This document shows, piece by piece, positions 8,643-27,587 of a stretch of 64,000 nt of DNA. Position 1 is the stretch's first letter. Each line of letters opens with the position of its first letter. The notes under the pieces were generated by a model. The model did no database searches. It worked only from the letters and a program-made list of their open reading frames with translations, and was not told where the DNA came from. Source of the stretch: a virus; IMG/VR virus record IMGVR_UViG_3300012971_000021; one strand, given 5' to 3'. The position numbers and the translations under genes are program-made.

Positions 8643-8953
8643 GAGATCACAACCTCCAGCCCGATACCGTTGATCGTGAGGTCTCTCCGCTCGCCGTTCC
8701 GCTCTAGCTGGAACGTGATCGACTGCAACGTTCCAGCGCCGACTTCACCCACAGTGTCCGATACACCCAGGATGTTCCATCCGATGATCTGGACGTTGCG
8801 GGTCGTCGAACGCATGATGGACGCTTCGATGTCTTCCGCGCCGCCGCCAAACAACGAATGCTCATATGCTCCCTCCCGCTCGAAACGGACACGGTCGCCG
8901 CCGGGTGCGTTGGGTGGCCGTACTGCCGGGGTGTAGTCTTCGTCGTCTACCAT
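8639..8953 (-). CDS. Hypothetical protein
   Basis: ORF coupled to neighbours by overlapping start/stop. Confidence 0.65.
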   Translation of the reverse strand: MVDDEDYTPAVRPPNAPGGDRVRFEREGAYEHSLFGGGAEDIEASIMRSTTRNVQIIGWNILGVSDTVGEVGAGTLQSITFQLERNGERRDLTINGIGLEVVIS

Positions 8954-11706
8954 CTGACCTCCCTCAATAGCTCGTGAAGCGTCGGCTCCACGATGTTGTC
9001 CCCACCACCCGTATCCTTCCGGATCATTCTCGCCCGGTAGAGACGGTTGATGATCGCGTTCGCTTGCTCGCGAGAGACGTTCAGAACCTCCTCTAGATCC
9101 TGTCGCCGGAACTTGCTCGCGCTGCGGAGAAGCTTGGCAAGCCCCCGCTGCTCTAGAAGGTATGTCCGGATCTCGTCTCTATGCTCGCGAGCCTCCTGCA
9201 CGTCCATGATCCGTTCTCTCGACCGCTCCGCGTATCCGAGTGTTGGCATATCGTAGACGTGGTCGATGAACGCTACGGCGTCTTGGACGTGCTCCTTGTT
9301 GACGATGATTCGCTCACCTTTCTCATCGCTGCTGAACGTTCTAGCCGCGAGAGAGACGGCAACGCGAGCGATCTTGATGCGGGCATTGGCCGCTTGGATG
9401 AGAGGAGGATCCTCGACGTATCGGTCTCCCATGGCGTTTGCTTGTCGGTAGACTTCATCCTCCGCTCCTCCCGCCCAACCGATCTGGTCGGGCTGCCTCG
9501 TCCAGACCCACATCAGCAGCGTGTGGCAGGCTTCGCTCGTGTACTTGAGTTCGCCAGGCTCGATCCGCTTATTGTACTCGTTCGGGTTGACGTCGTACTT
9601 GGAGAGTGCCATCGCGAGATCGAAGCGTGCGATGTCTTCCGGGTTCCCGATGAGCGGACGGATCGCGTCTACTCCGTATGTGAACTGATCCATTCCTCCG
9701 TGTCGAGGATTTCCGAGCCAGAGGAGACGTGTACGTGCGAATGTGACCTCCTGCTGAATCTTAGTGAGGCGAGCCATCCCCGACGCCCGCACGTCGGACA
9801 TCTTGGCGATCTCCTCCGGGTGGAGACCTGATAGTTCATCGATGACAACCAGTCGTCGGTCGTTGAGAGGAATGACTCCCCAAGTAACGGCCCAATCGCG
9901 TCCAGAAATCTGCTGGACTCCTCCAACCAGGCCAGCAATAGTAGCTGCCTCGCCTCCGACCATTTCTCCTGCGCCGTAATGTCGAACGAGTCGTTCAGCA
10001 GCTTCCGATTTCCCCGTGCGAGTATCTCCAACGATGAGAGATTCGAGCCAACCCCTGTGGACAAGCTGACCTCCGAACTTGAAGGAGAGAGGCGAGTGGA
10101 ACGTTAGATCCATGACCGCGTGCATCTCAGGACGGCCGATGATCTTTGTGACGTGGCTCGCTAGTTCGCGCTCGATCTCTCCGAGCTTCTTGAGTGGACG
10201 TTGCCTTCCCCGCGGTCGGAATCGCATCATCATCTTGACCGCTTCGCCCGTCAAGTCAAACCAGTCTACGCTCGTTTGTTGTTGTTGGACTTCCCAGGCG
10301 AGAAACTCGTTGCTTGCGTCCCTTGGGGAAGGGTAGAGCGCGCCGGTGACGACGACAGTGGTGTTTGCCATTGTGTCGTGTCTTCCCACCGACGTGATCT
10401 TGATGTTCTTGTAGTCGCGTGCTTGTGTCCCGTCCGCATGGTCTATGGACGGTCGAGCGAACAGTTGTTCGACGGCTTGGTGATCGGATACCTCGATGTT
10501 GAGTTTGGTACACTTCTGCGCTCCGTACTCCTGGCGCAGCATTTCCCGTCTAGTTATCTCCGGAGCGTCGATCATTCCGAGGATCATGGGGCTGGTCGGA
10601 AGTATCTCTAGCTCGGCGTTGCCTCCCGCTCCGTTGAGAGGACAGACCGCGCATTTCGGCCCCGCGTCCTGCGTACAAGCGAGGTTCGCGAGTCGAGGGA
10701 CGGAGTAGCCCGGTTCCTTCTTGCCCTTGATCGTTACTTGGAGCCTGACCGGATCTCCGACTCGATGCGAGTCGAACGAGTCGAGTACCGTAATGACCTC
10801 TGCTTCCCCGGCTGGCTTCTTCTTGGGTGAGTGTGCCTCGGTCAGCAACCGCTCGAAGTCGATAGCGTCGTGCTCTGCCCAAAAGTCGGTCAGATCCTTT
10901 CCGTGCTTGTCTACGATCTCGTACGGGAGTTGAACGATTCGTACGTCCGCGATCCTGGCGAGCGAGCGGGCGATCTTGCCCGCGCCGCTCTGCCCGTCCG
11001 CATCGCAGTCCTGCGCGATGAAGACGAGCTTGCCCTTGAAGAGAGGATTCCACCGGGGGTTCCAGGTCTTGGCCCCGGACGTTCGGGTGATCGCGGGGTA
11101 GCCGTTCTGGATAGTGACAAGAGCGTCCCACTCTCCCTCGCAGATGATGATTCGATCCGCGCTGATTTGGTTGAGCGGGTATAGCTCGGTCGGCCTCATG
11201 CCGGTGACGTTCCAGATCTTGGTCTTACCCTCGCGAGTCGTGTAGCGACGTACGTTGAAAATCTCTCCCATCGGGCCGCGGATCGGGATGGTGTAGACTT
11301 CCCGGTCGCGATCCCAACCGATCTCGAAGTCGATGATGGTCTTGGTATGGATACCACGGCTAACGAGATAGTCGGCCACTGTCTCATCATCGAGGAGAGC
11401 CGCATGCCACCCTTTGATCTTGCCTTCGGTGATGATCTCCTGCGCGCTGGCCCCGCCCCGCCGAGGAGAGCCATTCATTGCGGCCCTCCCCGGCGGAACC
11501 CAGCGCGACTGGTGCATGATGAGGTCTGCGACCCGACCGCCGCCGCATCCAGCGTGACAGAACCACTCGCCGGTCAGCGTGTTGAGCGACGCCGACCGAT
11601 TCGTGTCGTCGTGGAGCGGGCACAGCATGTCCCACTCGCCGTTCTTCTTGGGCCGACCGATGAGGTACGGCCGTAGAAGACGCAGATGTCTCGCGGATAC
11701 CGGCAC
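8947..11706 (-). CDS. Primase-helicase fusion: Zn-finger + TOPRIM primase + MCM-like AAA+ helicase
   Basis: CPLHDD...FCHAGC; ICEGEWDAL and QDCDADG (TOPRIM); CTQ..KCAVC; GDTRTGKS, VVIDE, WLGNP, ARFDL. Confidence 0.88.
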   Translation of the reverse strand: MPVSARHLRLLRPYLIGRPKKNGEWDMLCPLHDDTNRSASLNTLTGEWFCHAGCGGGRVADLIMHQSRWVPPGRAAMNGSPRRGGASAQEIITEGKIKGWHAALLDDETVADYLVSRGIHTKTIIDFEIGWDRDREVYTIPIRGPMGEIFNVRRYTTREGKTKIWNVTGMRPTELYPLNQISADRIIICEGEWDALVTIQNGYPAITRTSGAKTWNPRWNPLFKGKLVFIAQDCDADGQSGAGKIARSLARIADVRIVQLPYEIVDKHGKDLTDFWAEHDAIDFERLLTEAHSPKKKPAGEAEVITVLDSFDSHRVGDPVRLQVTIKGKKEPGYSVPRLANLACTQDAGPKCAVCPLNGAGGNAELEILPTSPMILGMIDAPEITRREMLRQEYGAQKCTKLNIEVSDHQAVEQLFARPSIDHADGTQARDYKNIKITSVGRHDTMANTTVVVTGALYPSPRDASNEFLAWEVQQQQTSVDWFDLTGEAVKMMMRFRPRGRQRPLKKLGEIERELASHVTKIIGRPEMHAVMDLTFHSPLSFKFGGQLVHRGWLESLIVGDTRTGKSEAAERLVRHYGAGEMVGGEAATIAGLVGGVQQISGRDWAVTWGVIPLNDRRLVVIDELSGLHPEEIAKMSDVRASGMARLTKIQQEVTFARTRLLWLGNPRHGGMDQFTYGVDAIRPLIGNPEDIARFDLAMALSKYDVNPNEYNKRIEPGELKYTSEACHTLLMWVWTRQPDQIGWAGGAEDEVYRQANAMGDRYVEDPPLIQAANARIKIARVAVSLAARTFSSDEKGERIIVNKEHVQDAVAFIDHVYDMPTLGYAERSRERIMDVQEAREHRDEIRTYLLEQRGLAKLLRSASKFRRQDLEEVLNVSREQANAIINRLYRARMIRKDTGGGDNIVEPTLHELLREVRW

Positions 11707-13558: not shown

Positions 13559-14674
13559 TCACTTCGTCTCGTCCGTGTAGACTTGATGGGCTTCGTACGG
13601 CTCCCACCCGCGAGAAGCGTGACCGCGCATCTCATGCCAGTCTGCGCCGATCTCGTGTAGCTCGCAGAAGTCGAAGCACCAACATCCCGGGCAAGTGAAC
13701 TGCCCCTGATTCTTGTACGCTCCCGCGGGAGGCGAATCCGGCCCTTCCATGCGGTCGGAGCGCCGAACGTTCTCCATGTCCCAAAACTCCGCGAGTACCT
13801 GCTGCTTCGCCGCGGCGCGCTCGTTGAAGTCGCGGAAGATCGGCGTGCGGACGAAGTATGGTGCCGGCTGCTTCTTGCTTACGCTACCGTCCTGGTTGAG
13901 CGAGAATCCGCCAGCATCTTTCGGGCGGTCGTCTTGGAACTGCTTACGCAGGTGGTTGTAGATCATTCCGGCGGGGCGCTGGTTCGGCTTGAGCAGCCCC
14001 TGCTCGTATATCCAGTCCAACCCCCACGTCCAGTAGCCGGTCGCCTGCGAGTCGAGCGAGAGGTACATCACGTTGATCGCTTTCGCGGTCTTGTGATCGA
14101 CGATGTGGATCTTTCCGGTACGCCGATTCTTGATGATCAAGTCGAGCGTACCGACGTAGATGAACAGCGGCTTACCGTCCGGCCCACGGACAAGCTGCTG
14201 GAACGGCTGCTCCGTGACGAGCACTTCCCATTCCTCGTCCCGCCCGTAGTGCTTGACGTAGGCGTTGAGCATGTCGTACCCGAGATCGCGAGCTTCCGCC
14301 CAGACCTCATCCTCCTCCAAGTCTTCGACCTTGAAGCCAAACTCGCCCTGCGACTTGGCCTCCTCGTCGTAGTAGCGGACGAATGACTCGGCGGGATGCG
14401 GCCCGCGCCGGACTCCCTTCTTGTAGTAGTCCGCGAGCGCCATATGTACGAGCGAGCCGAACCGGAGCGGTGGGATGTCATGCTTCGGCTTTAGGACTTC
14501 CTCAAACTCCATCCACCACTTCCAGCGGCACCGCTTGAAGGTGCCGCGCTCGCTCGTGCGAAGCATTGGGAGACCGTCGGCCCCCGCGCCGATTGGGTGG
14601 CTGCCCGGCACACCAACGGTCTCCCGATGCTTCACCAAGTCGGATCGCCGCCGACGGCGTTGGATTGTTGACAT
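13559..14674 (-). CDS. PD-(D/E)XK Cas4/RecB-like exonuclease
   Basis: RTSERGTFKRCRWKW, GSLVH, GTLDL, IVDHKT, C-terminal CPGCWCFDFC. Confidence 0.88.
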   Translation of the reverse strand: MSTIQRRRRRSDLVKHRETVGVPGSHPIGAGADGLPMLRTSERGTFKRCRWKWWMEFEEVLKPKHDIPPLRFGSLVHMALADYYKKGVRRGPHPAESFVRYYDEEAKSQGEFGFKVEDLEEDEVWAEARDLGYDMLNAYVKHYGRDEEWEVLVTEQPFQQLVRGPDGKPLFIYVGTLDLIIKNRRTGKIHIVDHKTAKAINVMYLSLDSQATGYWTWGLDWIYEQGLLKPNQRPAGMIYNHLRKQFQDDRPKDAGGFSLNQDGSVSKKQPAPYFVRTPIFRDFNERAAAKQQVLAEFWDMENVRRSDRMEGPDSPPAGAYKNQGQFTCPGCWCFDFCELHEIGADWHEMRGHASRGWEPYEAHQVYTDETK

Positions 14675-15048: not shown

Positions 15049-15234
15049 TTAGGCGTCGAACCAACGCTCTAGTTCCAGCAGATCCTCCTCGTCAACGACC
15101 TCGCCTTCAACGATTTCGGGGTCATCTTCGGGGATTCGCTCGGCGGTTTTGTCCATCCAGAACTTGATCGTCCCGATTGTTACGCCGATAACGACGCAGG
15201 CGACCTCAGGTGCGCCCACGATACGCTTTCGCAA
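15049..15234 (-). CDS. Small protein, hydrophobic N-terminus and acidic tail
   Basis: ORF; start may be GTG 15219. Confidence 0.55.
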   Translation of the reverse strand: MRKRIVGAPEVACVVIGVTIGTIKFWMDKTAERIPEDDPEIVEGEVVDEEDLLELERWFDA

Positions 15235-16993
15235 TCTGACGACGCAGATCGAGGATGTTCTTGTTCACGTCGAGCTTGCCGTCGTTCACCTTCTTGATGT
15301 ACTCCTCTACGGTTCCGCTTGAGCGATAGACGAGCGCAGTCACCTGATGGTGCCGCGTCGTATCGACCGCTCTGTCCGTGACTTGGGTCTGATCGTCCGG
15401 GTTCCAGGTCTCGTCTAGGATATGTACGTCCGTAGCGCGGTTCATCGTGATCCCGACACCGGCCGCAGCCGTTACCAAGATCGCGACCCGAACCTTGCCG
15501 GCCTGGAAGTCGGCTTGGATCCTGTTCCGCTCTGTCTGGTGCACCGCTCCGGAGATGATCTCGCAGGGTATGCCGTACCGATTGAGGTAGCGATGAATCA
15601 TCTCCGCGGTCTCGCGGAACTGACTGGCGATGAGTGCCTGATCCGTGCCGTCTGGATCGTCGGGGTCGATGCCGCGCTCTGCCAGCTTGTCCAGCAGAGC
15701 CGGGATCTTGCCTGACTCCTCGGTCGCTCTGACCTTCATGTCAACGTAACCCGTCTCATCGTCTACTGAGAGGATCTCGACTGAGCACATGTGGTTCGCG
15801 AACTGCTTGAGCCGCGTGTACTCGGCCAACACCGAAGTCGCCGACAGATGGTACTCGTCGATGCGAACCTCAGCTTCCTCGTGGAACGTCTTGTACTGCA
15901 TCGCTTGCTTCGGCGTCATAGTGCACCAAACGTCGATCCACTGCGTCTCCGGCAGCTGAGGTAGAACCTCAGTGCGCAGACGCCGGATGGCGTAGGGAGC
16001 GAGGGACTCATAGAACGAATCCTCGCGCCCTGGGATGATGTTGCCGATAGCCTTGTGATTGCCCCACGTGTTCTCGATCACGAGCCATTGCGCAGCCCAC
16101 TTCCACTTGGACGTGAACTTGTTCGGATCGAGCCACGAGAGTGCACCAAAGAGCTTGACCGGCTTACCACCCATTGGCGTTCCGCTCAGCCCGTACTTCC
16201 GCTTGGCCTTGATAGCTTTCGCTACCTTGGGAAAGCGGTTCTGCGTCTCGGGCAGGCCGGTCTTATGGAACTCGTCAATGGTGAACGAGTTCCACCCTTC
16301 CTTCAACTGCGGGAAGTTACCGCGCCTGACCATGTCGGCGGTCGTGATGAACCAGAACGGCTTGCCGTCCCGGAGACAATCCTCGACCGTGCCCTCTGCG
16401 TCTGCCTTCTCGGCGGCGTTGAGGTCGCCTGAGTAGGTCACGACGGTGTGATCTGTCCACCGCTCGATCTCCATGCGCCAAACACTGTCGAGCGTGGACT
16501 TCGGCGCGACAACCAGGTGCGGCCCGTCTTCAAGGTCAGCCTCGAAGACAGCACCAATCACTTCGGTCGTCTTGCCGAGCCGCGGCTCTAGCAGGTTCAG
16601 GCAGGAAGTCGTCGCCATGAACTTCACGTCGGCCCGCTGGTACGGACGGAACCACTTGGCGAGCTTCGGGAGCTTCTGCTTCAGCTTCAGATCCTTGAGC
16701 GGTACATCGTCAAGGATTGACAGCGTCTTCAGGTTACGCTCCTTGGCTACCTCCTTCTTGCCCCATGCGCGCAGCGCCGCGCCGAGCGTGAGTCCGTTGC
16801 CGAACTCCTCGCGCAGACGACGCATGACGACGAGGTCAAGAGGAAGGAGCCAGAGAGGCCCGCCATTCTGGGCATTCAGGAACCGAGCACCAATCGGCTT
16901 GAGCCTGTTCATCGCCGCTACAGCCTCAGGCGTGTAGCGGAAATGTACAGCGCAGCGATCACCTTCTTCTGTAAGCTCGGCGAACGCTTCCAC
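15206..16993 (-). CDS. SNF2-family helicase with HARP-like N-terminus
   Basis: EPRLGKT, IDEFH, LSGTP, AAGVGITM, WNP...DRA. Confidence 0.9.
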   Translation of the reverse strand: MEAFAELTEEGDRCAVHFRYTPEAVAAMNRLKPIGARFLNAQNGGPLWLLPLDLVVMRRLREEFGNGLTLGAALRAWGKKEVAKERNLKTLSILDDVPLKDLKLKQKLPKLAKWFRPYQRADVKFMATTSCLNLLEPRLGKTTEVIGAVFEADLEDGPHLVVAPKSTLDSVWRMEIERWTDHTVVTYSGDLNAAEKADAEGTVEDCLRDGKPFWFITTADMVRRGNFPQLKEGWNSFTIDEFHKTGLPETQNRFPKVAKAIKAKRKYGLSGTPMGGKPVKLFGALSWLDPNKFTSKWKWAAQWLVIENTWGNHKAIGNIIPGREDSFYESLAPYAIRRLRTEVLPQLPETQWIDVWCTMTPKQAMQYKTFHEEAEVRIDEYHLSATSVLAEYTRLKQFANHMCSVEILSVDDETGYVDMKVRATEESGKIPALLDKLAERGIDPDDPDGTDQALIASQFRETAEMIHRYLNRYGIPCEIISGAVHQTERNRIQADFQAGKVRVAILVTAAAGVGITMNRATDVHILDETWNPDDQTQVTDRAVDTTRHHQVTALVYRSSGTVEEYIKKVNDGKLDVNKNILDLRRQIAKAYRGRT

Positions 16994-17294
16994 TCTTTGT
17001 CCTCCTGGTCTCTGGTCGATTGCCCTTGTAGACGCCGAACACTTCGACGCCGCGTGCCGCGAACTCCCAGAGATGATCTGGAAACGGAATCACGAGTTGT
17101 CTCTGATGAAGGTTCGACTGGATCTTGTTCGCTGCCGATGGCGTGTCACATGTCTCGATCAACGCCCACACTCCTGGCCTGGCCACGAGCGGCTGGAGAT
17201 GGTTAGCCCAACTCATGCCACCCCTTCTGTGTCCTGGGCCGGGAATGGAGCCAACGAACTCGACCCCTGTTCCTACGTGTTGCCCCTTGGGCAT
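16959..17294 (-). CDS. Hypothetical protein
   Basis: AAAGGAGGGTACAC-ATG start. Confidence 0.75.
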   Translation of the reverse strand: MPKGQHVGTGVEFVGSIPGPGHRRGGMSWANHLQPLVARPGVWALIETCDTPSAANKIQSNLHQRQLVIPFPDHLWEFAARGVEVFGVYKGNRPETRRTKSGSVRRAYRRR

Positions 17295-17309
17295 GTGTAC
17301 CCTCCTTTG

Positions 17310-17590
17310 TGTACGGCAAGAGCACCCGCGGAGTCGAACCGCGGTACGCCATCGTGCTCCGGGTTGGGGTTGCGCCAGTCCCTGGTTTCTCCTGGACTGG
17401 ATGGGGCTAGTACAATCCCGGCATTTCCGGAACCGGGTTCCTGCCTTCTCACGCTGACACGTCCATTCCGGAGATCAGACGTATCCCCCAACTCTAGTTG
17501 GGGGATCCAGGGGAGGGTACCGATCTACCCTGGATCCCCCTCGCGGGGCAGCGTTGAAGTGCGAACTCGCGCCGCCGCGATCTTGTCGAT
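17310..17590 (-). ncRNA. Candidate structured RNA/leader with tRNA-like T-arm minihelix and anti-GGAGGGTACC segment
   Basis: No credible ORF; several hairpins; GGAGCAC..CCGCGG-TTCGACT-CCGCGG-GTGCTCT; TAGAAT at 17589-17594. Confidence 0.45.
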
Positions 17591-17591
17591 T

Positions 17592-17843
17592 CTAGCCGAT
17601 CTCCGACCTGTTCGGTACCCGGCCTGCCTTTGAACAATATGGGCAGACTCGGCCGGTGATGATGATCTTCTTCTGATCCTTGGCACTCGGCACTCTACGT
17701 GGCCGAAGCCACTCGCGCGCCGAGACCAAGAATGGGCGGTCTACACAGTCCTTCCGCCCGCATGTCACGATGAGAAAACCCGGGAAATCCTGGCTTTTCA
17801 CCGCTTTGAACACAGGCAATCGGCTCACGAAGTCATCAGACAA
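17592..17843 (-). CDS. Small Zn-binding protein (Cx4C...CPYC)
   Basis: Start moved to TTG 17843. Confidence 0.65.
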   Translation of the reverse strand: MSDDFVSRLPVFKAVKSQDFPGFLIVTCGRKDCVDRPFLVSAREWLRPRRVPSAKDQKKIIITGRVCPYCSKAGRVPNRSEIG

Positions 17844-18073
17844 TCGAGAACCTCCTGCGCCTCGTCGGTGGAGACGGGATCGTCCCATTCATCGAACATG
17901 TCCATGGCGAGTTCCCAAGCCGTCGGGAGGCTCTGGTTCTTGTGCCACCAGAGCAGGAGACCGTCGGCCCAGAGATGCTCTTCATGCTTCTCCTTCGGGA
18001 TCTTGGAGAGAGCGTAGCCTGCTTCGGCCATGTCCTTCTCGTCCTGATCCCAGGGGTTGTCACTTACGTCCAT
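17825..18073 (-). CDS. Small acidic hypothetical protein
   Basis: GAGAGGGTACC start motif. Confidence 0.75.
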   Translation of the reverse strand: MDVSDNPWDQDEKDMAEAGYALSKIPKEKHEEHLWADGLLLWWHKNQSLPTAWELAMDMFDEWDDPVSTDEAQEVLDCLMTS

Positions 18074-18152
18074 TTGGTACCCTCTCTGTAGTGAAGCTCG
18101 GATGAGCTTCAGACCTCCCAGCCCGATGGTCTGGGCTTGGGAGATCTGAAGA

Positions 18153-18398
18153 TCACCTTCCAGTCCGGCCGGGGTCTTCCAGCCGGATCTCAGCGGCGGC
18201 CAAAGTCTGCATACCGCCCGGGTCGGTGTACACCTGGATGAGAGTCCGCTTGCGGTCTACCCAGTGGTCACCTACCTTGATCTTGCCAGCCGGGAGGATC
18301 TTCACCTTCTCGCTGATGATGACCTTCGGCCCGACTACAAACGGCTTGATCCCTTCAAACGCGACGATATGCCAGATCCGGCGACCGAGACCGAGCAT
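18153..18398 (-). CDS. Hypothetical protein
   Basis: ORF in operon context. Confidence 0.6.
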   Translation of the reverse strand: MLGLGRRIWHIVAFEGIKPFVVGPKVIISEKVKILPAGKIKVGDHWVDRKRTLIQVYTDPGGMQTLAAAEIRLEDPGRTGR

Positions 18399-18448
18399 TT
18401 GCTCAACCTCAGTCTGGTCGCCGGATCTGATGGACTCGATGACCGCCG

Positions 18449-19006
18449 TTAGGAAGGGTTCCGGCGGTTGGCCGCCCGGCGCTCCGCGAGGGTGCGCGCC
18501 CTCTTGGGGCCGGACGCCGCAGCCGCAGCGGTGCCCTTCTTGGCGCCACGCGTCGTGCCCGTGGACTTGGTCGTCGTCTTGCTCGACTTGGTGGAGCCGT
18601 TGCCGTTGCCGCTACCACCGCGGACGGCCGCTGCCTTCTGCTCCTCCTCGTCGCCGTACAGGTCACGAGCGGCTTGGACGCTGATCCCGGCACGAGCCGC
18701 GATCAACTCCCAGCGGTTCCGGTCGTTCTCCTTGGCCGACTTCACGGCCTTGGCGGTCGCCGGGATCTCGTCCCACACGCCGACCTCGACCAGCGCCTTG
18801 CACCACTCCAGCATCGAGACGCTGGTGACGGGGAGGCCCAACTCGTTGGCCGCCGCCGTGTGGCTCTCGATGCCGCGCTTCGCCAGCTTCACCAACTCGG
18901 CGTAGCTGACCTGACCGCCCCGCTGCCGGGCGTTGCCGTCCCGAGCGGGGGTCGTGCTCTTGCGTCCGCGGCCTGTCGCCGCGGGCGTTGTCCTCTGACG
19001 AGGCAT
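18449..19006 (-). CDS. Putative DNA-binding regulator with basic tails and two HTH-like segments
   Basis: GRGRK tail; SHTAAANELGL and WELIAARAGISVQAARDLY; own promoter. Confidence 0.6.
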   Translation of the reverse strand: MPRQRTTPAATGRGRKSTTPARDGNARQRGGQVSYAELVKLAKRGIESHTAAANELGLPVTSVSMLEWCKALVEVGVWDEIPATAKAVKSAKENDRNRWELIAARAGISVQAARDLYGDEEEQKAAAVRGGSGNGNGSTKSSKTTTKSTGTTRGAKKGTAAAAASGPKRARTLAERRAANRRNPS

Positions 19007-19052
19007 GCTCCCTCCTATACGGATAGGTTGATGATCGGTACCTACGCAACTG

Positions 19053-19081
19053 AGTATATAGCATAGGCATGTAGCCGTCTA
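19053..19081 (-). promoter_or_regulatory. SigA-like promoter TAGACG-N17-TATACT
   Basis: Read directly on the minus strand upstream of 19006. Confidence 0.55.
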
Positions 19082-19156
19082 CCCTTGATTACCAGGATAA
19101 ACGGGAGGGTGTCTGACCCTCCGAGCCTGGCACCCATCGATGCCAGACTCGCGGGG

Positions 19157-19453
19157 TCACCGCACCTTCAAGCAGCCGAACCTCGGCTTGATCACCTTGT
19201 TCAAGTAGACGCCGCTCGACTCCGCATACGCGCAGGCGACCGCCATCTGCCGCGAGACACCGAAGTAGATGTACCTCGCCGCGTTCTTGAACGAGACGAC
19301 CATGATGTCGCTGCCCTTCTTCTGACCGGTCTTTGGCCATCCGATCCACTCGATGTTCGATGAGTCGATCCGCCGAATGTTCAGGTGGATCGGCCCTTCG
19401 GTCGTGATGATCGTGTGCTCGCCCTTCGGCTCCCAGCTGTTGTCGAGGGGCAT
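19157..19453 (-). CDS. KTSC-domain protein
   Basis: IDSSNIEWIGW...VSFKNAARYIYFGVS...AESSGVYLNKVIKPRF; start at ATG 19453 (TAATG overlap). Confidence 0.8.
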   Translation of the reverse strand: MPLDNSWEPKGEHTIITTEGPIHLNIRRIDSSNIEWIGWPKTGQKKGSDIMVVSFKNAARYIYFGVSRQMAVACAYAESSGVYLNKVIKPRFGCLKVR

Positions 19454-20043
19454 TAGCTCATCCCCAGAATCTCCCAGCAGTCCGGGCCGATGCCCCGAGC
19501 GCGGCTGGTGTCGTCGGTCAACTCTCGACCGCAACGACCGCAGTGCTCGAACTCGATCCCGAACAGCTGGAGGCTTTCGACCACGCCCATGTCCTTGATC
19601 ATCTCGCGGATCTTCGTCCGGGTAGCCTGCTCCTTGACCGGGAACCGCTTGCCGTGTCCGACGATCTGGTCGATGAACTGGTAGCCTTTCCAGTCGCCCT
19701 CTTTGGGCGTCCGGAGGCGGAAGAACGAGACCTGGTTCTTGTGGCCAGGCACGTTCCGCAGCCCATAGCGACCGTCGGGCAGATCGGACTTGTCCGATCT
19801 GTTCTTGGGCAGCCACGGGAGCTTCTTGAGCGTCTCGATCACGGTGCCCATCCGCTTCTTTGGAAGCTCGGACGGGTACGTGTCGAAGTCGGCCTCCATG
19901 ACCCAGTCGATCTGCTCCTGGGTCAAGCTGCTCAGATCCTTCCCATCGCGGAGTCCGCGCAGGTAGTTGAGCTGAGGCTCGCTCGCCGTCTCCTCTGCCG
20001 GCTGGATGAACTTCGCCGGCACAGGCGTTCTGCGTTTTGCCAT
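19453..20043 (-). CDS. DUF6011-like Zn-ribbon protein
   Basis: CGRCGRELTDDTSRARGIGPDC. Confidence 0.8.
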   Translation of the reverse strand: MAKRRTPVPAKFIQPAEETASEPQLNYLRGLRDGKDLSSLTQEQIDWVMEADFDTYPSELPKKRMGTVIETLKKLPWLPKNRSDKSDLPDGRYGLRNVPGHKNQVSFFRLRTPKEGDWKGYQFIDQIVGHGKRFPVKEQATRTKIREMIKDMGVVESLQLFGIEFEHCGRCGRELTDDTSRARGIGPDCWEILGMS

Positions 20044-20109
20044 TTCGGTACCCTCTCTTTCTGGAGCGGGAGTGCTCCGGGCAAGGCCATTGCTGACCCG
20101 CCCGCAGAA

Positions 20110-20595
20110 CTACTGCTCCCTGCGATCTTCCAGGTGCTGGTCGATCTTGTCGTGTAGCTTTTGTCCTTCTTCCTTGAGCAACTCAAGGTGTTCCATCAGC
20201 CACGCGGCCTCGGTCGGTTCGAGCGACTGGATGAACTCTGGCGTGATCGTCTCCCTCAAACCCTGGGAGAGTTCACGGAACTGGTTCATCCATTCCCGGA
20301 GAGTTGCTTCCTCCGAGGATGGCGTCCGAACCTCCGTGACCTCATACGAGCCGACGGCCATCGTCTCGCCCGGGTACGCCGGGTGATAGATGATCGCGTA
20401 CCACTCGCCAGGGCCATCGGCGTAGTCTGCTTCCCAGTCTCGCTGGGACATGCAGTGCTCGCCGTACGGATCCCACGACTCATCGAAGCTGTCGTGGACT
20501 TGGATGACGATGCCCGTTTCCCAGGAATCGAGGTCGCTGGCTTCTTCAGTCAGCGTCAGGACATCTCCTTCCTTGGGTCTCGGCAGCTTAGTCAC
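20110..20595 (-). CDS. Hypothetical protein (SH3-like N-terminus, coiled-coil C-terminus)
   Basis: Start moved to GTG 20595. Confidence 0.65.
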   Translation of the reverse strand: MTKLPRPKEGDVLTLTEEASDLDSWETGIVIQVHDSFDESWDPYGEHCMSQRDWEADYADGPGEWYAIIYHPAYPGETMAVGSYEVTEVRTPSSEEATLREWMNQFRELSQGLRETITPEFIQSLEPTEAAWLMEHLELLKEEGQKLHDKIDQHLEDRREQ

Positions 20596-20920
20596 GGCCG
20601 TACCCAACAGGAGGCTCCATGCCCTCTGCCTCGTCGATGAGGCGCTCGACATCGCCCCAGTTCTCCAGGGGATTGTCCATCACGGACTCGATGTCAAGCT
20701 CAACGATGGCCTCCAGCTTCTCGCGGGTCGCATCGCTGCCACCCGAGTCGGGGAGGTTGTCATGCCAGTCGCTGTACTCGGACTGGACATCGAGCAGACG
20801 ACCGAGCGCGTTGCTTAGCTCGCTCGCTTGCTCCTGGAGCTTGTCGAACTCGACACGTGCGTCGCCTACGGCGTCCGCCCAACGAGCCGACCTGCTCTTT
20901 TGTTTGGCCTTCTTGGCCAC
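20588..20920 (-). CDS. Acidic helical hypothetical protein
   Basis: GGAGGGTACC start motif. Confidence 0.8.
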   Translation of the reverse strand: MAKKAKQKSRSARWADAVGDARVEFDKLQEQASELSNALGRLLDVQSEYSDWHDNLPDSGGSDATREKLEAIVELDIESVMDNPLENWGDVERLIDEAEGMEPPVGYGRD

Positions 20921-20994
20921 AGGTACCCTCCTTCGGTTCGTGCCGGATGATTCCGAACACGAGGCCCGGGATCGTTACATCCCGGACTTCCTGC

Positions 20995-21225
20995 TCAGTA
21001 CCATTGATGCCTCGGAACGTTGTTCCAGATCATGACGTCTAGCTCGTTCTGGAGACGATCCTTGTTGACGGGAACGTCGCTGACCCGCAAGAAGAACAGT
21101 ACATCGCGGGTCAGCTGCGCTCTCGTCTTGCCCGGAACGTAGACCAGATCCGGGTTGCGACTCGTCACCTTGACTCTGACGTGTCCGTCGTCGGTCAGGG
21201 TGAGACTGTAGGTGATCCTGACCAT
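20995..21225 (-). CDS. Hypothetical protein
   Basis: ORF with AAGGAG RBS. Confidence 0.7.
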   Translation of the reverse strand: MVRITYSLTLTDDGHVRVKVTSRNPDLVYVPGKTRAQLTRDVLFFLRVSDVPVNKDRLQNELDVMIWNNVPRHQWY

Positions 21226-21233
21226 TTGTCTCC

Positions 21234-22202
21234 TTACTTGGAGATCGACTTCCTGCCCTTCAAGCCGGAGCCGGGGTTGCCGGTGATGTTCGCCCGCGCG
21301 CCCGCGCTCCTGCCAGCGGACTGAGCTGCATCGTCGTGCTTGCGGGAGACGGCCTTGCTACTGCCGCCCCGCATGCCGCCCGTGAGCGGGAACTCCTCCA
21401 GCATGAACTCCCGGTTGATCTTGTCCTGATCCCGGAGAGCGAGTTCCATGCCGGTAGTGCTGGAGCCAGGTGTCGCGCGACGCATCTCGGAGAACCGAAG
21501 CGAGATGGTCGAAGCGAAGCCCTGAGCGAAGTTCCGCCTGAACGTCTTCCAGTTGGCGTAGTTCTGCTCAACGCCGCGCTTCTTGCACTCGCTGCGGTAG
21601 TACCGGATGTACTTGTCACGGGCCGCGGTGCGGGCCATGTCGGCGTCGAATCCGGCCTGTTGCATAACCTTCCCAACGTCGTCCCAGCCCCAGCCCGCCT
21701 CGCGGAACTTCCGGAGGTTGTCGAACAGGGAGGCACTCTTGTCGGGGGTCGGATGCGTAGCCGAGATCAGCTGCGTCATCAGCGACGTGAAGAGCAGGGT
21801 CATGTAGCCAAGGTCGGCCTCCGTCCCGATGATCGGAACGGTGCCACCCTTGTACGTCTTGTCCGCATTGCTGTAGTGCTGCATGTGCGTGACGACGACG
21901 CAGTTGGTGTGCCGAGCCGTGGACAGGAACAGCGACCACAGCCCGTCGCAGATCTCCGGGAAAGGCCCGGACTCAAACGCGAAGTTGTAGTCGAAGTCCT
22001 GGATGACCGGCTTGCGCTGGTCGATGACCATGCCCGCAGCGTGCTGCTGGATCTCCCAGAGTTCGATGCGATACTTGTTCATCATGTTGTTCGCGGCCGT
22101 GAAGAATGAATCCCTCTCAGCCTCGAACTCCGATGACTCGGCCTTGGCCAACAAGCCCTGGATCTTCCGAAGAAGATCGTGCTTGTCAGTTGATGTTGGC
22201 AT
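21234..22202 (-). CDS. DUF2786-domain protein
   Basis: LLRKIQGLLAKAESSEFEAERDSFFTAANNMMNKYRI; start ATG 22202. Confidence 0.8.
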   Translation of the reverse strand: MPTSTDKHDLLRKIQGLLAKAESSEFEAERDSFFTAANNMMNKYRIELWEIQQHAAGMVIDQRKPVIQDFDYNFAFESGPFPEICDGLWSLFLSTARHTNCVVVTHMQHYSNADKTYKGGTVPIIGTEADLGYMTLLFTSLMTQLISATHPTPDKSASLFDNLRKFREAGWGWDDVGKVMQQAGFDADMARTAARDKYIRYYRSECKKRGVEQNYANWKTFRRNFAQGFASTISLRFSEMRRATPGSSTTGMELALRDQDKINREFMLEEFPLTGGMRGGSSKAVSRKHDDAAQSAGRSAGARANITGNPGSGLKGRKSISK

Positions 22203-22282
22203 TCGGTACCCTCCTTCGGGGTTTGTCGGTAGTACAGGTGGACATGACGTCCGGCCGAGGATCGGTGATCCCCAGCCGCGCG

Positions 22283-22531
22283 TCAGGCCTTGTCGCGCAG
22301 GATCCCGGCGTCCTTGAGCAGCTGCTCGTACGCCGCGAACACGGGCTTGCGCTGCCGGCGAACGTGGATCTCGTTGTTCGCCAGGATCTCCCAGGCCAGG
22401 GCCAGCGGCGACTGCCGCCACTTCGGCCCATTCGGGTGCTCGACCTCCAGCTTCAGCTTGTAGTAGATCTGAAGCAGAGCGAACGCCTGAATCTGGTCGG
22501 GAGTGTCGAGGATGAATCCTCCGTCACCCAT
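22283..22531 (-). CDS. Hypothetical protein
   Basis: Start moved to ATG 22531. Confidence 0.65.
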   Translation of the reverse strand: MGDGGFILDTPDQIQAFALLQIYYKLKLEVEHPNGPKWRQSPLALAWEILANNEIHVRRQRKPVFAAYEQLLKDAGILRDKA

Positions 22532-22781
22532 CTTCCTGTTCCTCCATGATGTCGATGAAGATGTCCTTGGCCTCGCGGCTTTCCTCTGTTTGGTATTCAT
22601 TCCAGAGTTCTTCCGCTTGGGCAAGCGGGACTGTTACGTCCCAACGCTCACGAGCGTCGTTGTTCGCGAGCCGTTCGTCGAAGCGCAGATGGATTATCTG
22701 CCCATCGGTCTGTGGCACGACGTACCATGTAATACGTCGCGTCCAGCCCGGTCGAGCGTTCTGCCATCGCTTGAGCCACAT
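22524..22781 (-). CDS. Hypothetical protein
   Basis: TGATG-coupled start at 22781. Confidence 0.65.
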   Translation of the reverse strand: MWLKRWQNARPGWTRRITWYVVPQTDGQIIHLRFDERLANNDARERWDVTVPLAQAEELWNEYQTEESREAKDIFIDIMEEQEDG

Positions 22782-23305
22782 CACTCGCCCCGGAACGTCT
22801 CGTCTCTGACGATGACGACCTGGTCGGTGCGCAGGATGTGCTCCTTTCCTGCCTCGTGGCCGTTGCGTGCGATGAACTTGATCCACTGCACGCCATGCTC
22901 GTCCCGGAAGACTTCCGCCGCTGCCGCGTACAACGCCGAGTCCATGGCGCTGAAGTACACGATGACAGGGTAGTCGAGGATGATGTTGGGGAGTTGCGCG
23001 ACGTCAAGTGCCAAAACCCGCCGCTTCTCGCCAACCGGGATGATCTCGTACTTCGGCTCGCTCGGCGGTGCGCCCCCGGGCTTCAACCCAGGCCACACCA
23101 GCCGACCGTCCGACTCGAACAACTCGATCACGCGCTCCAGAAGCATGCGAGCCTCGTCAGCGATGGTCGAGTAGGAGCAGTCACCGCTCATCCAGACGCT
23201 TACCAGCATCTGCGCGATGATCTCCGTGTGCGAGTACATCCCGTCACACAGTTCCAGGATGAGGAACTCGGCCCGCTCGCGGGCCTTGGGTTCCCTTTCG
23301 TCCAT
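22781..23305 (-). CDS. Hypothetical protein
   Basis: GGAGGGTACC start motif. Confidence 0.8.
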   Translation of the reverse strand: MDEREPKARERAEFLILELCDGMYSHTEIIAQMLVSVWMSGDCSYSTIADEARMLLERVIELFESDGRLVWPGLKPGGAPPSEPKYEIIPVGEKRRVLALDVAQLPNIILDYPVIVYFSAMDSALYAAAAEVFRDEHGVQWIKFIARNGHEAGKEHILRTDQVVIVRDETFRGE

Positions 23306-23406
23306 GTGGTACCCTCCTTCGGTTCAGAACCTACGGTACATAGGCTCCAAACCCTGGCCAAGCCCCCACCGCATAGGGGGCCGAGCCAGGATTTGCGGCC
23401 TACGTG

Positions 23407-23817
23407 CTAGTCGGCGCGCATTCTGACGTGAGTCCTGATCTCTGCCATCTTCCGGAGCAGTTGCTTCGCACTCGCGTGTGGCCGAGTCTGGAGCCAGTCG
23501 TACAGCTGGGAGGCGATGTCTTCCTCCATGGCAGCGATCCCGGCCTCGGCGTCTGCCGAACCCTCGTTGCTGCCGTGCTGGTAGCCGAGATCGCGGGCGG
23601 TCTGGATGACCTTGACGAAGTCGGTGTCGTCCCAGCAGTCGTCGATGAGGATGCTCTGCGTCGATCCGCTGGGCAACGTCGCTGTGATCCTCTTGACCTT
23701 CGCGTCCAGGAGCTTCTCGGCCAACTTGTCCCAGAACTCCTCTTCTGCGATGTCCTCGGGACGATTGCCCGGGATCATGTTCGTCGTGACGCCCGGCGGC
23801 ATGTTCCAGGAACTCAC
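23407..23817 (-). CDS. Hypothetical protein
   Basis: Coupled ORF. Confidence 0.7.
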   Translation of the reverse strand: MSSWNMPPGVTTNMIPGNRPEDIAEEEFWDKLAEKLLDAKVKRITATLPSGSTQSILIDDCWDDTDFVKVIQTARDLGYQHGSNEGSADAEAGIAAMEEDIASQLYDWLQTRPHASAKQLLRKMAEIRTHVRMRAD

Positions 23818-24188
23818 AGTTCCATCTCCTCGCCGCAGTAGACGCAGACGGGCTTGCCGTTGCGGATCGTGTGCGTGTGAACGTGGTGCTTGTCGGCTGC
23901 GAAGACGATGTCGTCGCTGGCCTCGAAGATTTCCTCATGATCGTCGCCGCTCCGGTAGTTGGCCTCGACCTTCTCGACGCTGCCATCTTCGAACACGACT
24001 TGGATCTCCAGGCCGTAACCGCCGTCGTCCGCGTCGGTCACCGGATTGTACTTCACATCCGGCTCACCGATGACGATGATGGTTCCGATCTGATTGAGGA
24101 TCTCGTCGGGGGTGTCGGGTGATCCGAAGACCACCTTGTCTCCGACCTTCAACTCGTTCTCACGCCAGTCCACGATTGTGACTGGCAT
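23814..24188 (-). CDS. Acidic SH3/KOW-like protein with C-terminal His/CxxC motif
   Basis: LKVGDKVVF; HHVHTH...CVYC; start ATG 24188. Confidence 0.7.
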   Translation of the reverse strand: MPVTIVDWRENELKVGDKVVFGSPDTPDEILNQIGTIIVIGEPDVKYNPVTDADDGGYGLEIQVVFEDGSVEKVEANYRSGDDHEEIFEASDDIVFAADKHHVHTHTIRNGKPVCVYCGEEMEL

Positions 24189-24263
24189 TCGGTACCCTCC
24201 TTCCGTTCCGTGTCCCTTATTGAACACGAGGCCCAGCGCGCGTTGACACGCTGGACTTCCTGC

Positions 24264-24485
24264 TCAGTCCGGGTTTTGGGCGAGCCAGATCTTCTCGTCT
24301 GTCTTGCCCGAGACCGTACCGCAGACCTGGAGAGCGTTGTACTCGCCATAGTCTTCGTACGCCATCTCCATGGCAGCCTCCTGCGTCGCCGCATCGAAGA
24401 CGTCATAGAAGTGGATGTAGCCGTTCTTGTCCGCGCCGTCGCAGGACGGCTCGTACAGCATGCCGTGGATCTTGAACTTAGGCAT
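24264..24485 (-). CDS. Hypothetical protein
   Basis: Coupled ORF. Confidence 0.65.
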   Translation of the reverse strand: MPKFKIHGMLYEPSCDGADKNGYIHFYDVFDAATQEAAMEMAYEDYGEYNALQVCGTVSGKTDEKIWLAQNPD

Positions 24486-24615
24486 CCTTGGCCTCCCGCT
24501 TGATCGCGTCCTTGCGGTCGCGACGATGCCGGGCAGACCGGGCTTTGTCCTCGGCCTTGGCCTGGGGCTTGCTCCGGCTGCCCGCGCCGATCTGAAGGTG
24601 CTTGCCCTTCTTCAT
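24478..24615 (-). CDS. 45-aa basic protein (MKKGKHLQIG...)
   Basis: Hand-translated; fills the gap with overlaps on both sides. Confidence 0.6.
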   Translation of the reverse strand: MKKGKHLQIGAGSRSKPQAKAEDKARSARHRRDRKDAIKREAKDA

Positions 24616-24836
24616 GGCTTCACCTGGTCGGCCGTGATCCACAGCTGGCCCTTGCCCGTGCCGAGCGTCGTTGACGCCCGGTACGACCGCCAGTGCATCT
24701 CACAGCCGTTCGCCCACGGCCCATGCGACGTCTTGAAGTCGTACGGGCCGGGTGTCCCATCCTGGCAGAAGTTGCACGCCGGGATGCTGGACACCAGGAT
24801 CACCTGATGCGGGATCAGCTTGTACTGCTTAGGCAT
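24612..24836 (-). CDS. Small Cys/His phage protein (CxxC...YDFKTSHGPWANGC...LGTGKGQ)
   Basis: GGAGGGTACC start at 24836; motif recalled from small actinophage proteins. Confidence 0.75.
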   Translation of the reverse strand: MPKQYKLIPHQVILVSSIPACNFCQDGTPGPYDFKTSHGPWANGCEMHWRSYRASTTLGTGKGQLWITADQVKP

Positions 24837-24911
24837 TCGGTACCCTCCTTGTCTGACGCCATCACCGATGACGTCCGGGTGGGGCAGCTTGGTGTCTGCC
24901 TCCACCGCACG

Positions 24912-25256
24912 TCACTGGGGATCGGGCTTGCCGAAGTTCGGCATGTCCATCCGCTCGTACAGTCGAGCAACCAGCTGGTCGCCGTCCATCTCGCGACCCT
25001 TGTCGTACAGGATCGTGTAGCTGATCAGCAAGCTGCTCTTGCCCGTGACGCGAATGTCCTCGGGCAGATGGAGCCGCTCGATGATCTCGATCCCCTTGAC
25101 CGTGCCTTTGCCGCCGCTGGCGTACTCAAGCACGGTTGCCGTCGTTCTCGGGTAGTTGGCCCGCTCGTGACCGGCATCGGACGGGATCGACATCCACTCG
25201 GGGCCGATCCATGCGCCGTGGCCGTTCATCCAGCGGTACTTGACAAGATCAAGCAC
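24912..25256 (-). CDS. Hypothetical protein
   Basis: ORF with AAGGAG RBS. Confidence 0.7.
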   Translation of the reverse strand: MLDLVKYRWMNGHGAWIGPEWMSIPSDAGHERANYPRTTATVLEYASGGKGTVKGIEIIERLHLPEDIRVTGKSSLLISYTILYDKGREMDGDQLVARLYERMDMPNFGKPDPQ

Positions 25257-25524
25257 TTGGTTCTCCTTCTAGCGTCAGGATGATCGACGCCTGTTGTCCT
25301 TCGCCGCCGTTGATGGGCGCGGCTGTGATCGTCGCCTTGGCGACCTCGACCGTTTTGGGATCCGGCTCGGGATCGCCCTCGCGACGCTCGGGCATGATGC
25401 AGTTCTCGACACGGATCACGAACGCCCACTCGCCGTTGTAGTTGAGCGTGACGTCCGTGATCGCGCCGTCCATCGGGTTCATCTCGATGTGGTAGACCTT
25501 GAGGTTCTCGTCGTTCGTGGCCAT
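25249..25524 (-). CDS. Acidic hypothetical protein
   Basis: Start ATG 25524 (TAATG overlap). Confidence 0.7.
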   Translation of the reverse strand: MATNDENLKVYHIEMNPMDGAITDVTLNYNGEWAFVIRVENCIMPERREGDPEPDPKTVEVAKATITAAPINGGEGQQASIILTLEGEPSA

Positions 25525-25787
25525 TACGCAACCCGAACGACGTGACTCTCGATGATCTTCCAGCCGAAGCTGTTCCAACGGCCCTCGGTCGGCATGCGCA
25601 GACCGGTCATCCTGACCTGCCGCTTGGAGTCGCTCTTGCCCCTCGGCCAGTAGGCGAGGTTGGGAGTGTCCTCCTCCTTGCGAGGCCAACAGCGGTCGAA
25701 GCGCAGCATGTCAAATGGAAAGTCGTGCTGGCCCTCGACCGTGAACTCGAACAAGGTGTTGATCTTGTTCTCCTTCATCGCTGGCAT
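25524..25787 (-). CDS. Hypothetical protein
   Basis: GGAGGGTACC start; FPFDMLRFDRCWP. Confidence 0.8.
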   Translation of the reverse strand: MPAMKENKINTLFEFTVEGQHDFPFDMLRFDRCWPRKEEDTPNLAYWPRGKSDSKRQVRMTGLRMPTEGRWNSFGWKIIESHVVRVA

Positions 25788-25871
25788 TGGTACCCTCCTT
25801 TCTTGGCAGTGCCCATTATGAGCACAGGCCCGGGGCAGGGAGCAATGTTCGCTCCCAGCCCCAGCCGCTGC

Positions 25872-26198
25872 TCATGCTAGGTTGTACCGCAAGCGGATGA
25901 ACTCGGCGATTGCCGTCCGCTGCAGCTTGTGACGAGAGATCGTGTTCTTGCGATCTCCCTTCTTGGGGCGCAGGTAGTACATGCCCTTCGCTCCATACTC
26001 GCCAGGCTCGTACTCGATGACGGCGACGATCTTGTCGTCCATCTCCATCGTGATCCCCCAGATCTCGGGGAGCAGGATCTCGTCATCGGCATCCTCGCGC
26101 TTGTGCTCGACCAGCCGCCCGTTCTTGGCCTTGACGAGCACGTAGCTCTTGCTGGTGATGCCAAGCTCTCCGAGCTTGTTTCTGACGTAGGCGCGCAT
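25872..26198 (-). CDS. Hypothetical protein
   Basis: Start moved to ATG 26198. Confidence 0.7.
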   Translation of the reverse strand: MRAYVRNKLGELGITSKSYVLVKAKNGRLVEHKREDADDEILLPEIWGITMEMDDKIVAVIEYEPGEYGAKGMYYLRPKKGDRKNTISRHKLQRTAIAEFIRLRYNLA

Positions 26199-26200
26199 AG

Positions 26201-26452
26201 CTATGCCGCCTCGACCTTGAGCCACTTGGGGATGTTCGTCCCGGTGGCCCACTCGGGGTTGAGCCTGACCTCGCCCCGCAGCTTGGTGTTGCTGCGGATG
26301 CGGATCAGGCGACCCGTCTTGAGGTTGGTCGCGTTCCATCCGCCGTACTGGCATTCGCCCTCGATGCGGATGACGTTCAGGCGACCCGTCGTGGATGACG
26401 TGTGCTTGATGACGTAGTAGCCGCCAATCTTCACGTCCTTCTTCTTGATCAT
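26201..26452 (-). CDS. Small SH3-like basic protein
   Basis: GGAGGGTACC start; DVKIGGYY...GGWNATNLKTGR. Confidence 0.75.
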   Translation of the reverse strand: MIKKKDVKIGGYYVIKHTSSTTGRLNVIRIEGECQYGGWNATNLKTGRLIRIRSNTKLRGEVRLNPEWATGTNIPKWLKVEAA

Positions 26453-26536
26453 TGGTACCCTCCTACGGGTTGTACGTGTCCAAGGATATGAACACGAGGC
26501 CGGACGCGATGCGGTTGACCGCGTCCGACTTCCTGC

Positions 26537-27348: not shown

Positions 27349-27425
27349 TGGTACCCTCCTTTTGACCGTGCCGGATGGCACGCGCTCAGGGTTGGGTAAT
27401 GCGGTCTACCCAACCCTAGCGCCTA

Positions 27426-27587
27426 CTACCGGCGCGTTGCGCTCGCAGCAAGAACCGACGTTGCGAGGAAGATCATGGCGAGTACGAGGGAGACGATCAT
27501 GGCGAACTGGTCGCCATTCATGGTCGCCGCCATAATCGCCATCACCATCGCGAAGATGGCGAACGCGATAGAGACGAACGTAGTCAT
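27426..27587 (-). CDS. 53-aa two-helix membrane protein
   Basis: MTTFVSIAFAIFAMVMAIMAA...IVSLVLAMIFLATSVLAA. Confidence 0.7.
   Translation of the reverse strand: MTTFVSIAFAIFAMVMAIMAATMNGDQFAMIVSLVLAMIFLATSVLAASATRR

Follow-up and report, generated by a model that had tools for sequence, protein, structure and literature searches.

Why would a phage genome hold, in a gap between genes, a reversed copy of the motif that marks the ribosome-binding sites (RBSs) of its early genes? The question is raised by IMG/VR record IMGVR_UViG_3300012971_000021, a 64,000-nt stretch of DNA from an uncultured soil phage, called the window here. Its early genes share a start-associated motif (SAS), GGAGGGTACC, and the gap at 17295-17591 carries a hairpin that displays the complement of this motif in its loop. 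The original prediction, made from the sequence alone, held that a minus-strand RNA with an exposed loop, antisense to the shared early RBS, could have many targets. The motif, the hairpin, its conservation, the covariation of its stem and the joint variation of loop and SAS were all observed, and the last three support this core idea. Our reading, to which we assign a probability of roughly 0.55, is that the gap specifies a structured RNA presenting the SAS complement GGUACCCUCC in a hairpin loop, and that this RNA acts as a phage anti-SAS riboregulator, its loop pairing with SAS sites in trans or over long range and lowering their translation together.

A start-associated motif marks the early genes

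Allowing at most one mismatch, GGAGGGTACC occurred 17 times in the window compared with 3.7 expected, and none of 100 shuffled sequences reached 17. On the minus strand there were 10 exact copies and 3 with one mismatch, each lying 1-4 nt before an ATG or GTG. The 13 genes that bear them start between 17294 and 28355 and encode small proteins that have no Pfam function or match only PHROGs of unknown function. All RBS copies of the motif fell within 17.3-28.4 kb, and none was found in the plus-strand structural block. The GTACC part of the SAS cannot pair with the canonical 16S tail GAUCACCUCCUUUCU, a tail that may not be that of the host.

18076-28369, minus strand: block of early genes with the SAS at the ribosome site
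20922, 22205, 23308, 24191 and 24839, minus strand (plus-strand start coordinates): exact copies of GGAGGGTACC
25789, 26454, 27350, 27829 and 28360, minus strand (plus-strand start coordinates): exact copies of GGAGGGTACC
18076 and 20047, minus strand (plus-strand start coordinates): SAS variants
About 28790 (GGAGGTACCGA) and about 15030, minus strand: looser SAS variants
17296-17305, minus strand: SAS variant GGAGGGTACA, RBS of a 111-aa gene

In local folds the SAS itself was mostly unpaired, downstream of strong hairpins. One or two such hairpins preceded each SAS by 25-90 nt (18093-28439, minus strand), and a sub-module, CUGAGCAGGAAGUCC...GGCCUCGUGUUC, recurred ahead of the genes starting at 26452, 24188 and 20920.

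The reversed copy lies in a hairpin loop

The sole exact plus-strand copy of GGAGGGTACC was at 17512-17521, inside GGGAGGGTACCG (17511-17522), and no start codon follows it. The original prediction had described this antisense copy and a hairpin around it; both the sequences and the positions were correct.

17500-17540, minus strand: anti-SAS hairpin with a perfect 13-bp stem and a 15-nt loop (17513-17527)

In the stem, GGGGGATCCAGGG (17500-17512) pairs with CCCTGGATCCCCC (17528-17540), and on the minus-strand RNA the loop holds nine of the ten antisense bases. Its 3' portion, GGUACCCUC(C), complements the SAS GGAGGGUACC; as RNA the loop reads UAGAUCGGUACCCUC followed by C, the exact complement of the motif. 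Complementarity between loop and SAS extends to 12 nt in the window (UCGGUACCCUCC). This extension past 10 nt was not consistent in the relatives inspected (L054 and L055), and pairing longer than 10 nt was dropped as a general feature. A terminator scan called none at 17500-17540. No Rfam family reached threshold in the window, so a known RNA family was ruled out.

The hairpin is conserved and its stem covaries

Relatives were gathered with the helicase protein encoded downstream of the gap, giving 45 loci in IMG/VR and 79 in JGI metagenomes. About 30 metagenomic loci from related phages kept the hairpin in this position. Each relative that used GGAGGGTAC-type ribosome sites carried exactly one reverse copy, located 200-420 nt ahead of the helicase gene, and relatives lacking a GGAGGGTAC-type start motif carried zero reverse copies. 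With the motif constrained to be unpaired in the search, 22 distinct hairpins were recovered from these roughly 30 loci. The 3' half of the loop was (G/U)GUACCCUCC in all 22, abutting the 3' arm of the stem. The loop varied in its 5' half, as did the stems, whose variants included ATCCAGGG, GAGTCGGG, AACCGGGG, CGTAGG and GAGGCCGG, and unrelated stems of 20-23 bp were present in L008, in L018/L021/L113 and in L128.

An alignment of the raw hairpins with MAFFT and RNAalifold mis-registered the 3' arms, and the alignment made by a covariance model, R1, from 18 full elements was used instead. In it, 98.0% of cells were paired compared with 82.1% in shuffles, and 16 of 23 pairs showed changes on both sides, a result equalled in none of 500 shuffles. 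When the partners were slid by 1-3 columns, pairing fell to 37-60%. The stem of the anti-SAS hairpin contributed both-side changes in 7 of its 12 pairs. These comparisons indicate that the base pairs of a structured RNA are kept by compensatory change across relatives, and comparative evidence points to a functional hairpin.

Loop and start motif change together

The relatives fell into groups that differ in their start motif, and the loop differed with it. In clade A (the window and about 25 loci) the start motif is GGAGGGTACC and the loop GGUACCCUCC (GGTACCCTCC as DNA). Clade B (L018/L019/L021/L113), with a helicase about 46% identical, has the start motif GGAGGGTACA, found in 7 copies in L019, and the loop UGUACCCUCC (TGTACCCTCC). 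Clade C (L011) has GGAGGGTCA(A) as its start motif, and its hairpin, at another position (L011:1596), has a loop that reads UUGACCCUCC (TTGACCCTCC). Across these clades TACC in the start motif goes with GGUA in the loop, TACA with UGUA, and TCA with UGA. In L128 the start motif GGAGGGTAT occurs with the loop GGUACCCUCC (GGTACCCTCC), and pairing is preserved through a U.G wobble. The bases outside the universal CCUCC core thus shift on both partners together, which is the key comparative evidence for pairing.

The clade C start motif also occurs in an IMG/VR record of 129,757 bases (G001) that contains two different related phage genomes of about 65 kb, with two helicase loci. Its 20 GGAGGGTCA start motifs lie in two blocks, and the record looks concatenated or chimeric.

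Potential targets of the loop were sought over the whole window with RNAduplex, using a 16-nt loop. The 11 best minus-strand targets were the ten exact SAS ribosome sites and the variant at 20047. Their energies were -20.9 to -24.6 kcal/mol compared with -9.8 to -16.8 kcal/mol for the canonical actinobacterial 16S tail, which may not be the tail of the host. The match extended to 12 nt (GGAGGGUACCGA) at 5 target sites. In three relatives (L007, L008 and L128) the next gene downstream has no proper SAS and the loop motif is intact, which argues for distant targets.

A tRNA-like minihelix accompanies the hairpin

A second structure, missed by the original prediction, lies in the same gap, immediately ahead of the SAS of the 111-aa gene.

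17319-17360, minus strand: tRNA-like minihelix
17361-17499, minus strand: structured insert of about 139 nt between the hairpin and the minihelix
17541-17591, minus strand: upstream part of the gap, with a GC-rich hairpin in minimum-free-energy folds and the boxes ACAAGMTCGCG and CGCTGCC, conserved in relatives

In the window, an acceptor-like stem, GAGCAC/GUGCUC with a flanking G.U pair, sits on top of a T-arm, CCGCGG-UUCGACU-CCGCGG, with about 9 nt where a tRNA would have its D and anticodon arms. Most relatives have the hairpin followed within about 10-15 nt by a similar tRNA 'top half' of about 42 nt, with a 6-7-bp acceptor-like stem on a 5-6-bp T-stem and a UUCRAYU loop; equivalents were found in L001-L005 and L083-L134. 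Both-side changes affected 6 of 6 pairs in the acceptor-like stem and 3 of 5 in the T-stem.

ARAGORN found no tRNA in the window or in 9 relatives, where only the acceptor and T arms are present, and Rfam did not call the minihelix a tRNA. These results ruled out a tRNA or attP remnant; because the 5' acceptor strand is present and covarying, the structure is a minihelix and not a fragment of a host tRNA. A longer version in L006 (5634-5702) gave a weak match to the tRNA clan, 16.5 bits against a gathering score of 47, and its near-cloverleaf size suggests descent of the minihelix from a tRNA gene. Substrates of RNase P include tRNA minihelices, the C4 RNA precursor of phages P1 and P7, and mascRNA. 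Based on its likeness to these, the minihelix is probably an RNase P or 3'-processing signal, or a stabilizing one.

The insert between hairpin and minihelix was common to the window and L088 (2909-3040) only, and R1 matched the window in two separate pieces. Blocks conserved between these two loci are a CCAGUCC...GGACUGG hairpin and the closing arms GUUGGGG/CCCCAAC; L090 and L097 seem to bear other inserts at the same spot. GUUGGGG of the insert can pair either with the 3' tail of the anti-SAS hairpin or with CCCCAAC at about 17363-17369. It had been proposed that the 3' arm of the hairpin pairs alternatively, as CCCCCAAC/GUUGGGGG, and thereby exposes the antisense motif. That pairing is present in the window, and among relatives it was found only in L088; since the insert supplies GUUGGGG, the alternative pairing is lineage-specific. 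Its role as an exposure switch is unneeded, as the motif already sits unpaired in the loop.

Immediately 5' of the anti-SAS hairpin, in the window and in relatives alike, a GC-rich hairpin of variable sequence is bordered by the boxes ACAAGMTCGCG and CGCTGCC; this stretch may be a promoter or an additional helix of the RNA, among other candidates. ACAAGMTCGCG was rejected as a repeated promoter box, with one exact copy in the window.

The element was taken as a minus-strand RNA on the basis of G.U asymmetry, the orientation of the T-loop and the minus orientation of all neighbouring genes. With 2-4 G.U pairs in clade B and L128, the sense-strand hairpin is 11-15 kcal/mol more stable than its complement, and the T-loop of the minihelix (GGUUCGAnUCC) is legible on the sense strand alone.

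A second anti-SAS-like element heads the SAS block

A further antisense variant, GGAGGGGGTACC at 28962-28973, had been reported in the original prediction; it was found as described and is conserved in relatives (L055, L185, L186, L187 and L180).

28956-28973, minus strand: second anti-SAS-like element, GGUACCC-CCUCCUUACGG (GGTACCC-CCTCCTTACGG as DNA)

This element precedes the first leftward early gene by about 180 nt and follows an AT-rich box resembling a -10 element; in relatives it often stands just after a TATAAT-like box. It complements an extended SAS, CCGAAGGAGGGUACC, with small bulges. In five clade A phages it heads the SAS block: no SAS was present in the 3 kb upstream of it, and SAS genes begin 115-180 nt downstream. 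Its clade C counterpart is UGACCCUCC-CUCCUUACGG (TGACCCTCC-CTCCTTACGG as DNA), which contains the exact anti-SAS of that clade. The element also contains CCUCCUUA, resembling a 16S 3' end, and its CCUCC was partly paired in folds. It is a candidate leader, promoter or second regulator. Service as the RBS of a plus-strand open reading frame (ORF) was ruled out, because L055 and L185 have not kept the ATG. An apparent clade B copy (L184) proved, on checking its orientation, to be an ordinary SAS RBS on the other strand.

Genomic setting

The window is a phage-like contig of 61% GC. Minus-strand, leftward genes span from about 29 kb down to 0, and rightward structural genes begin at about 31 kb. 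The gap at 17295-17591 (minus strand, about 300 nt) lies between a 98-aa and the 111-aa gene and has no credible ORF.

3023-6421, minus strand: DnaE
8947-11706, minus strand: primase-MCM fusion
13559-14674, minus strand: PD-(D/E)XK nuclease
15206-16993, minus strand: SNF2 helicase
16959-17294, minus strand: 111-aa gene, overlapping the start of the helicase gene
Stop codon TAG at 17592-17594, minus strand: 98-aa gene, just upstream of the gap

Comparison with 50,697 records of isolated phages gave no match to the window at the nucleotide level, which ruled out a close cultured relative. Its helicase is only about 31% identical to helicases of Streptomyces and Gordonia phages.

Parallels in other phages

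SAS have been described in Cluster K mycobacteriophages (PMC3203893) and in Microbacterium phages of cluster EF (PMC7302621), and their role was called unknown in 2024 and 2025 (PMC11373665, PMC12699233). In Cluster K, the SAS is asymmetric and unusually well conserved; it takes the place of the RBS in 11-19 non-structural genes, always in one orientation, and its conservation extends past 16S pairing (PMC3203893). The motif of the window is likewise asymmetric, at least 10 nt long, upstream of many starts in one orientation, and confined to early or non-structural genes. However, the two differ in sequence (GGGATAGGAGCCC in Cluster K, GGAGGGTACC here) and occur in unrelated phages. By these comparisons the window motif is an analogue of the Cluster K set and not a member of it.

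K1 phages carry a single reversed SAS that is not tied to a gene start (Pope et al. 2011, PMC3203893), a parallel that the original prediction had missed. In Anaya, we found the reversed SAS in a 10-nt hairpin loop, GCGCGG-CCUCCUAUCC-CCGCGC, with an outer 10-bp stem. This hairpin lies in a 385-nt gap on the strand of the SAS genes (L162:34871-34883; about 59870 in the Anaya record), and its region is conserved in 138 Cluster K records. The reversed SAS of Adephagia also lies in a hairpin loop (L194:1685-1694; 58684-58693 in the record), in a highly structured gap between genes 92 and 93 (z = -8.2). RNA-seq placed the start of late transcription in Adephagia in this gap (PMC11373665). Covariation of the Cluster K hairpin was weak, with one both-side pair and several G.U pairs, and loop complementarity has decayed in some K subclusters. 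In AnnaSerena (cluster EF), the only partial reverse match in positions 8,000-56,707 was 9 nt long and lay inside the stem of a terminator-like hairpin, so that this cluster does not support an anti-SAS loop.

L195:3290-3335 (about 11300 in the record): 9-nt match of AnnaSerena, between two genes of the structural region

A loop-displayed reverse motif thus recurs in two unrelated phage groups without being universal. The literature searched held no proposal of an anti-SAS RNA.

Several known systems share parts of the proposed design. C4 RNA (P1/P7 immI, RF01695) is cut from a longer transcript by RNase P and, through segments left exposed, base-pairs with complementary sequences overlapping an RBS of the same operon. 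It has one target operon, whereas the element described here has at least 10 candidate gene targets; a further difference is the position of the tRNA-like signal, which in the window is 3' of the antisense hairpin, and processing there is putative. No match to C4 was found at 17000-18000, even at E values up to 10. Staphylococcus aureus RNAIII and Rsa-type small RNAs (sRNAs) use C-rich loops to pair with the Shine-Dalgarno regions of several mRNAs, blocking initiation. Those are host sRNAs that read ordinary Shine-Dalgarno sequences with a short UCCC seed, in contrast to a phage loop of 10-12 nt that would read a private Shine-Dalgarno extension placed on the phage's own genes. The T4 products RegB and RegA recognize an early ribosome-site motif (GGAG for RegB) and end early translation; they are proteins, a nuclease and a repressor, whereas the effector proposed for the window is an RNA. 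The element is a member of none of these three groups. In MALAT1-mascRNA, and where RNase P acts on polycistronic mRNAs, an embedded mimic of the acceptor and T arms sets the ends of a neighbouring RNA. The window differs in having only the 'top-half' minihelix of about 42 nt, with putative cleavage.

How the element may act

If the riboregulator reading is correct, the element would be transcribed where the SAS-rich early block meets the replication module, which comprises the SNF2 helicase, nuclease, primase-MCM and DnaE genes. The RNA would probably be cut out or stabilized by way of the adjoining minihelix through RNase P-type processing. Its loop is predicted to pair with single-stranded SAS sites more strongly than the 16S anti-Shine-Dalgarno tail does, and so would compete with 30S binding there. 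The whole set of SAS genes could then be tuned or shut off together once the replication genes are transcribed. From the sequence we infer the production and processing of the RNA, its trans or long-range pairing, repression, the existence of a discrete sRNA and an early-to-middle switch.

A broader proposal, which we hold tentatively and believe less in than in the regulator itself, is that SAS and anti-SAS form a phage-private, orthogonal 'Shine-Dalgarno/anti-Shine-Dalgarno' code that could shut off early translation genome-wide by RNA alone. In actinobacteriophages the extended RBS would tag a set of early genes, and one hairpin loop would out-compete the 16S tail at these sites. The hairpin RNA would be made with middle or late transcripts and freed by tRNA-like processing.

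Several observations weigh against an anti-SAS riboregulator. The alignment used to count covariation had been fitted to the structure in the model, a procedure that favours this structure, but the margin over shuffles is large. Main-clade stems are nearly all Watson-Crick, so that the choice of strand there rests on context, and the unconstrained antisense fold in this clade was slightly more stable. In G001 (L014/L016), with its 20 GGAGGGTCA sites, no reverse copy with at most one mismatch was found in a hairpin. Two Cluster K phages, Ekdilam and Amgine, have an unchanged SAS but a homologous loop that has drifted (CCUCCUUCCCC). AnnaSerena, which has its own SAS, showed no loop-displayed reverse copy in positions 8,000-56,707, a range that does not cover 1-7,999.

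Pairing might be confined to cis, with the loop contacting the SAS of the next gene (the 111-aa gene, coupled to the helicase) in a long-range pseudoknot that gates that gene. Autoregulatory mRNA pseudoknots provide a precedent; most clade A relatives have GGAGGGTACT/A at the downstream gene, 75-95 nt after the loop, and the hairpin of L011 is followed, about 40 nt further on, by the start of an SAS gene. We consider this unlikely: the downstream RBS of L007, L008 and L128 is not an SAS although the loop motif is perfectly kept, and in the window and L088 the 139-nt insert and the minihelix separate the loop from the downstream gene. Pairing in cis would also leave unexplained why the loop fits the consensus of more than 10 other genes better than the downstream variant. 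A slightly smaller chance attaches to a decoy, in which the loop (..CCCUCC) would imitate the 16S anti-Shine-Dalgarno tail, or bind a phage or host factor, and titrate it. CCUCC is indeed the anti-Shine-Dalgarno core, all that Ekdilam and Amgine retain of the loop is its CCUCC-like part, and the 28956-28973 element carries the 16S-3'-end-like CCUCCUUA. However, the bases outside CCUCC (GGUA, UGUA, UGA) do not vary inside a clade and differ between clades in step with the SAS, as predicted by SAS pairing and not by mimicry of an unchanging rRNA tail.

The 10-mer might instead be read as DNA, by a protein that uses it as an operator in the manner of the stoperators of Cluster A mycobacteriophages, with reversed copies marking the borders of the early region. 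Its copies are orientation-biased and intergenic, and reverse-type copies bracket the SAS block (17.5 kb and 28.96 kb). This seems very improbable, because the fixed 1-4-nt spacing to start codons, together with the GGAGG core, indicates a role as RBS, an operator in duplex DNA would have no need of a covarying hairpin, and the G.U pairs of clade B and L128 point to RNA. Least likely of all is an ordinary terminator or mRNA-stabilizing hairpin whose loop matches the SAS by chance. The strong GC stem does end a gene block, and actinobacterial terminators can do without long U tracts, but a U tract followed the hairpin in 0 of 22 versions, which ruled out an intrinsic terminator, and chance cannot yield a loop that is invariant while the stems vary and that tracks the clade SAS.

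Significance

SAS have been catalogued in actinobacteriophages since 2011, and a covarying antisense hairpin offers a concrete mechanism for them, namely RNA-RNA competition at the ribosome site. An orthogonal code, if true, would explain both the SAS of Cluster K and their lone reversed copy. Such competition is open to direct study in Adephagia and Anaya, genetically tractable phages of Mycobacterium smegmatis, where an analogous loop lies at the late-transcription leader. The minihelix would add an example of tRNA-mimic punctuation in phage operons. If confirmed, the anti-SAS hairpin would provide a natural orthogonal RBS/anti-RBS pair for synthetic biology in high-GC hosts, and it would represent a phage riboregulator that times the translation of many targets, the equivalent in RNA of RegA/RegB in T4.
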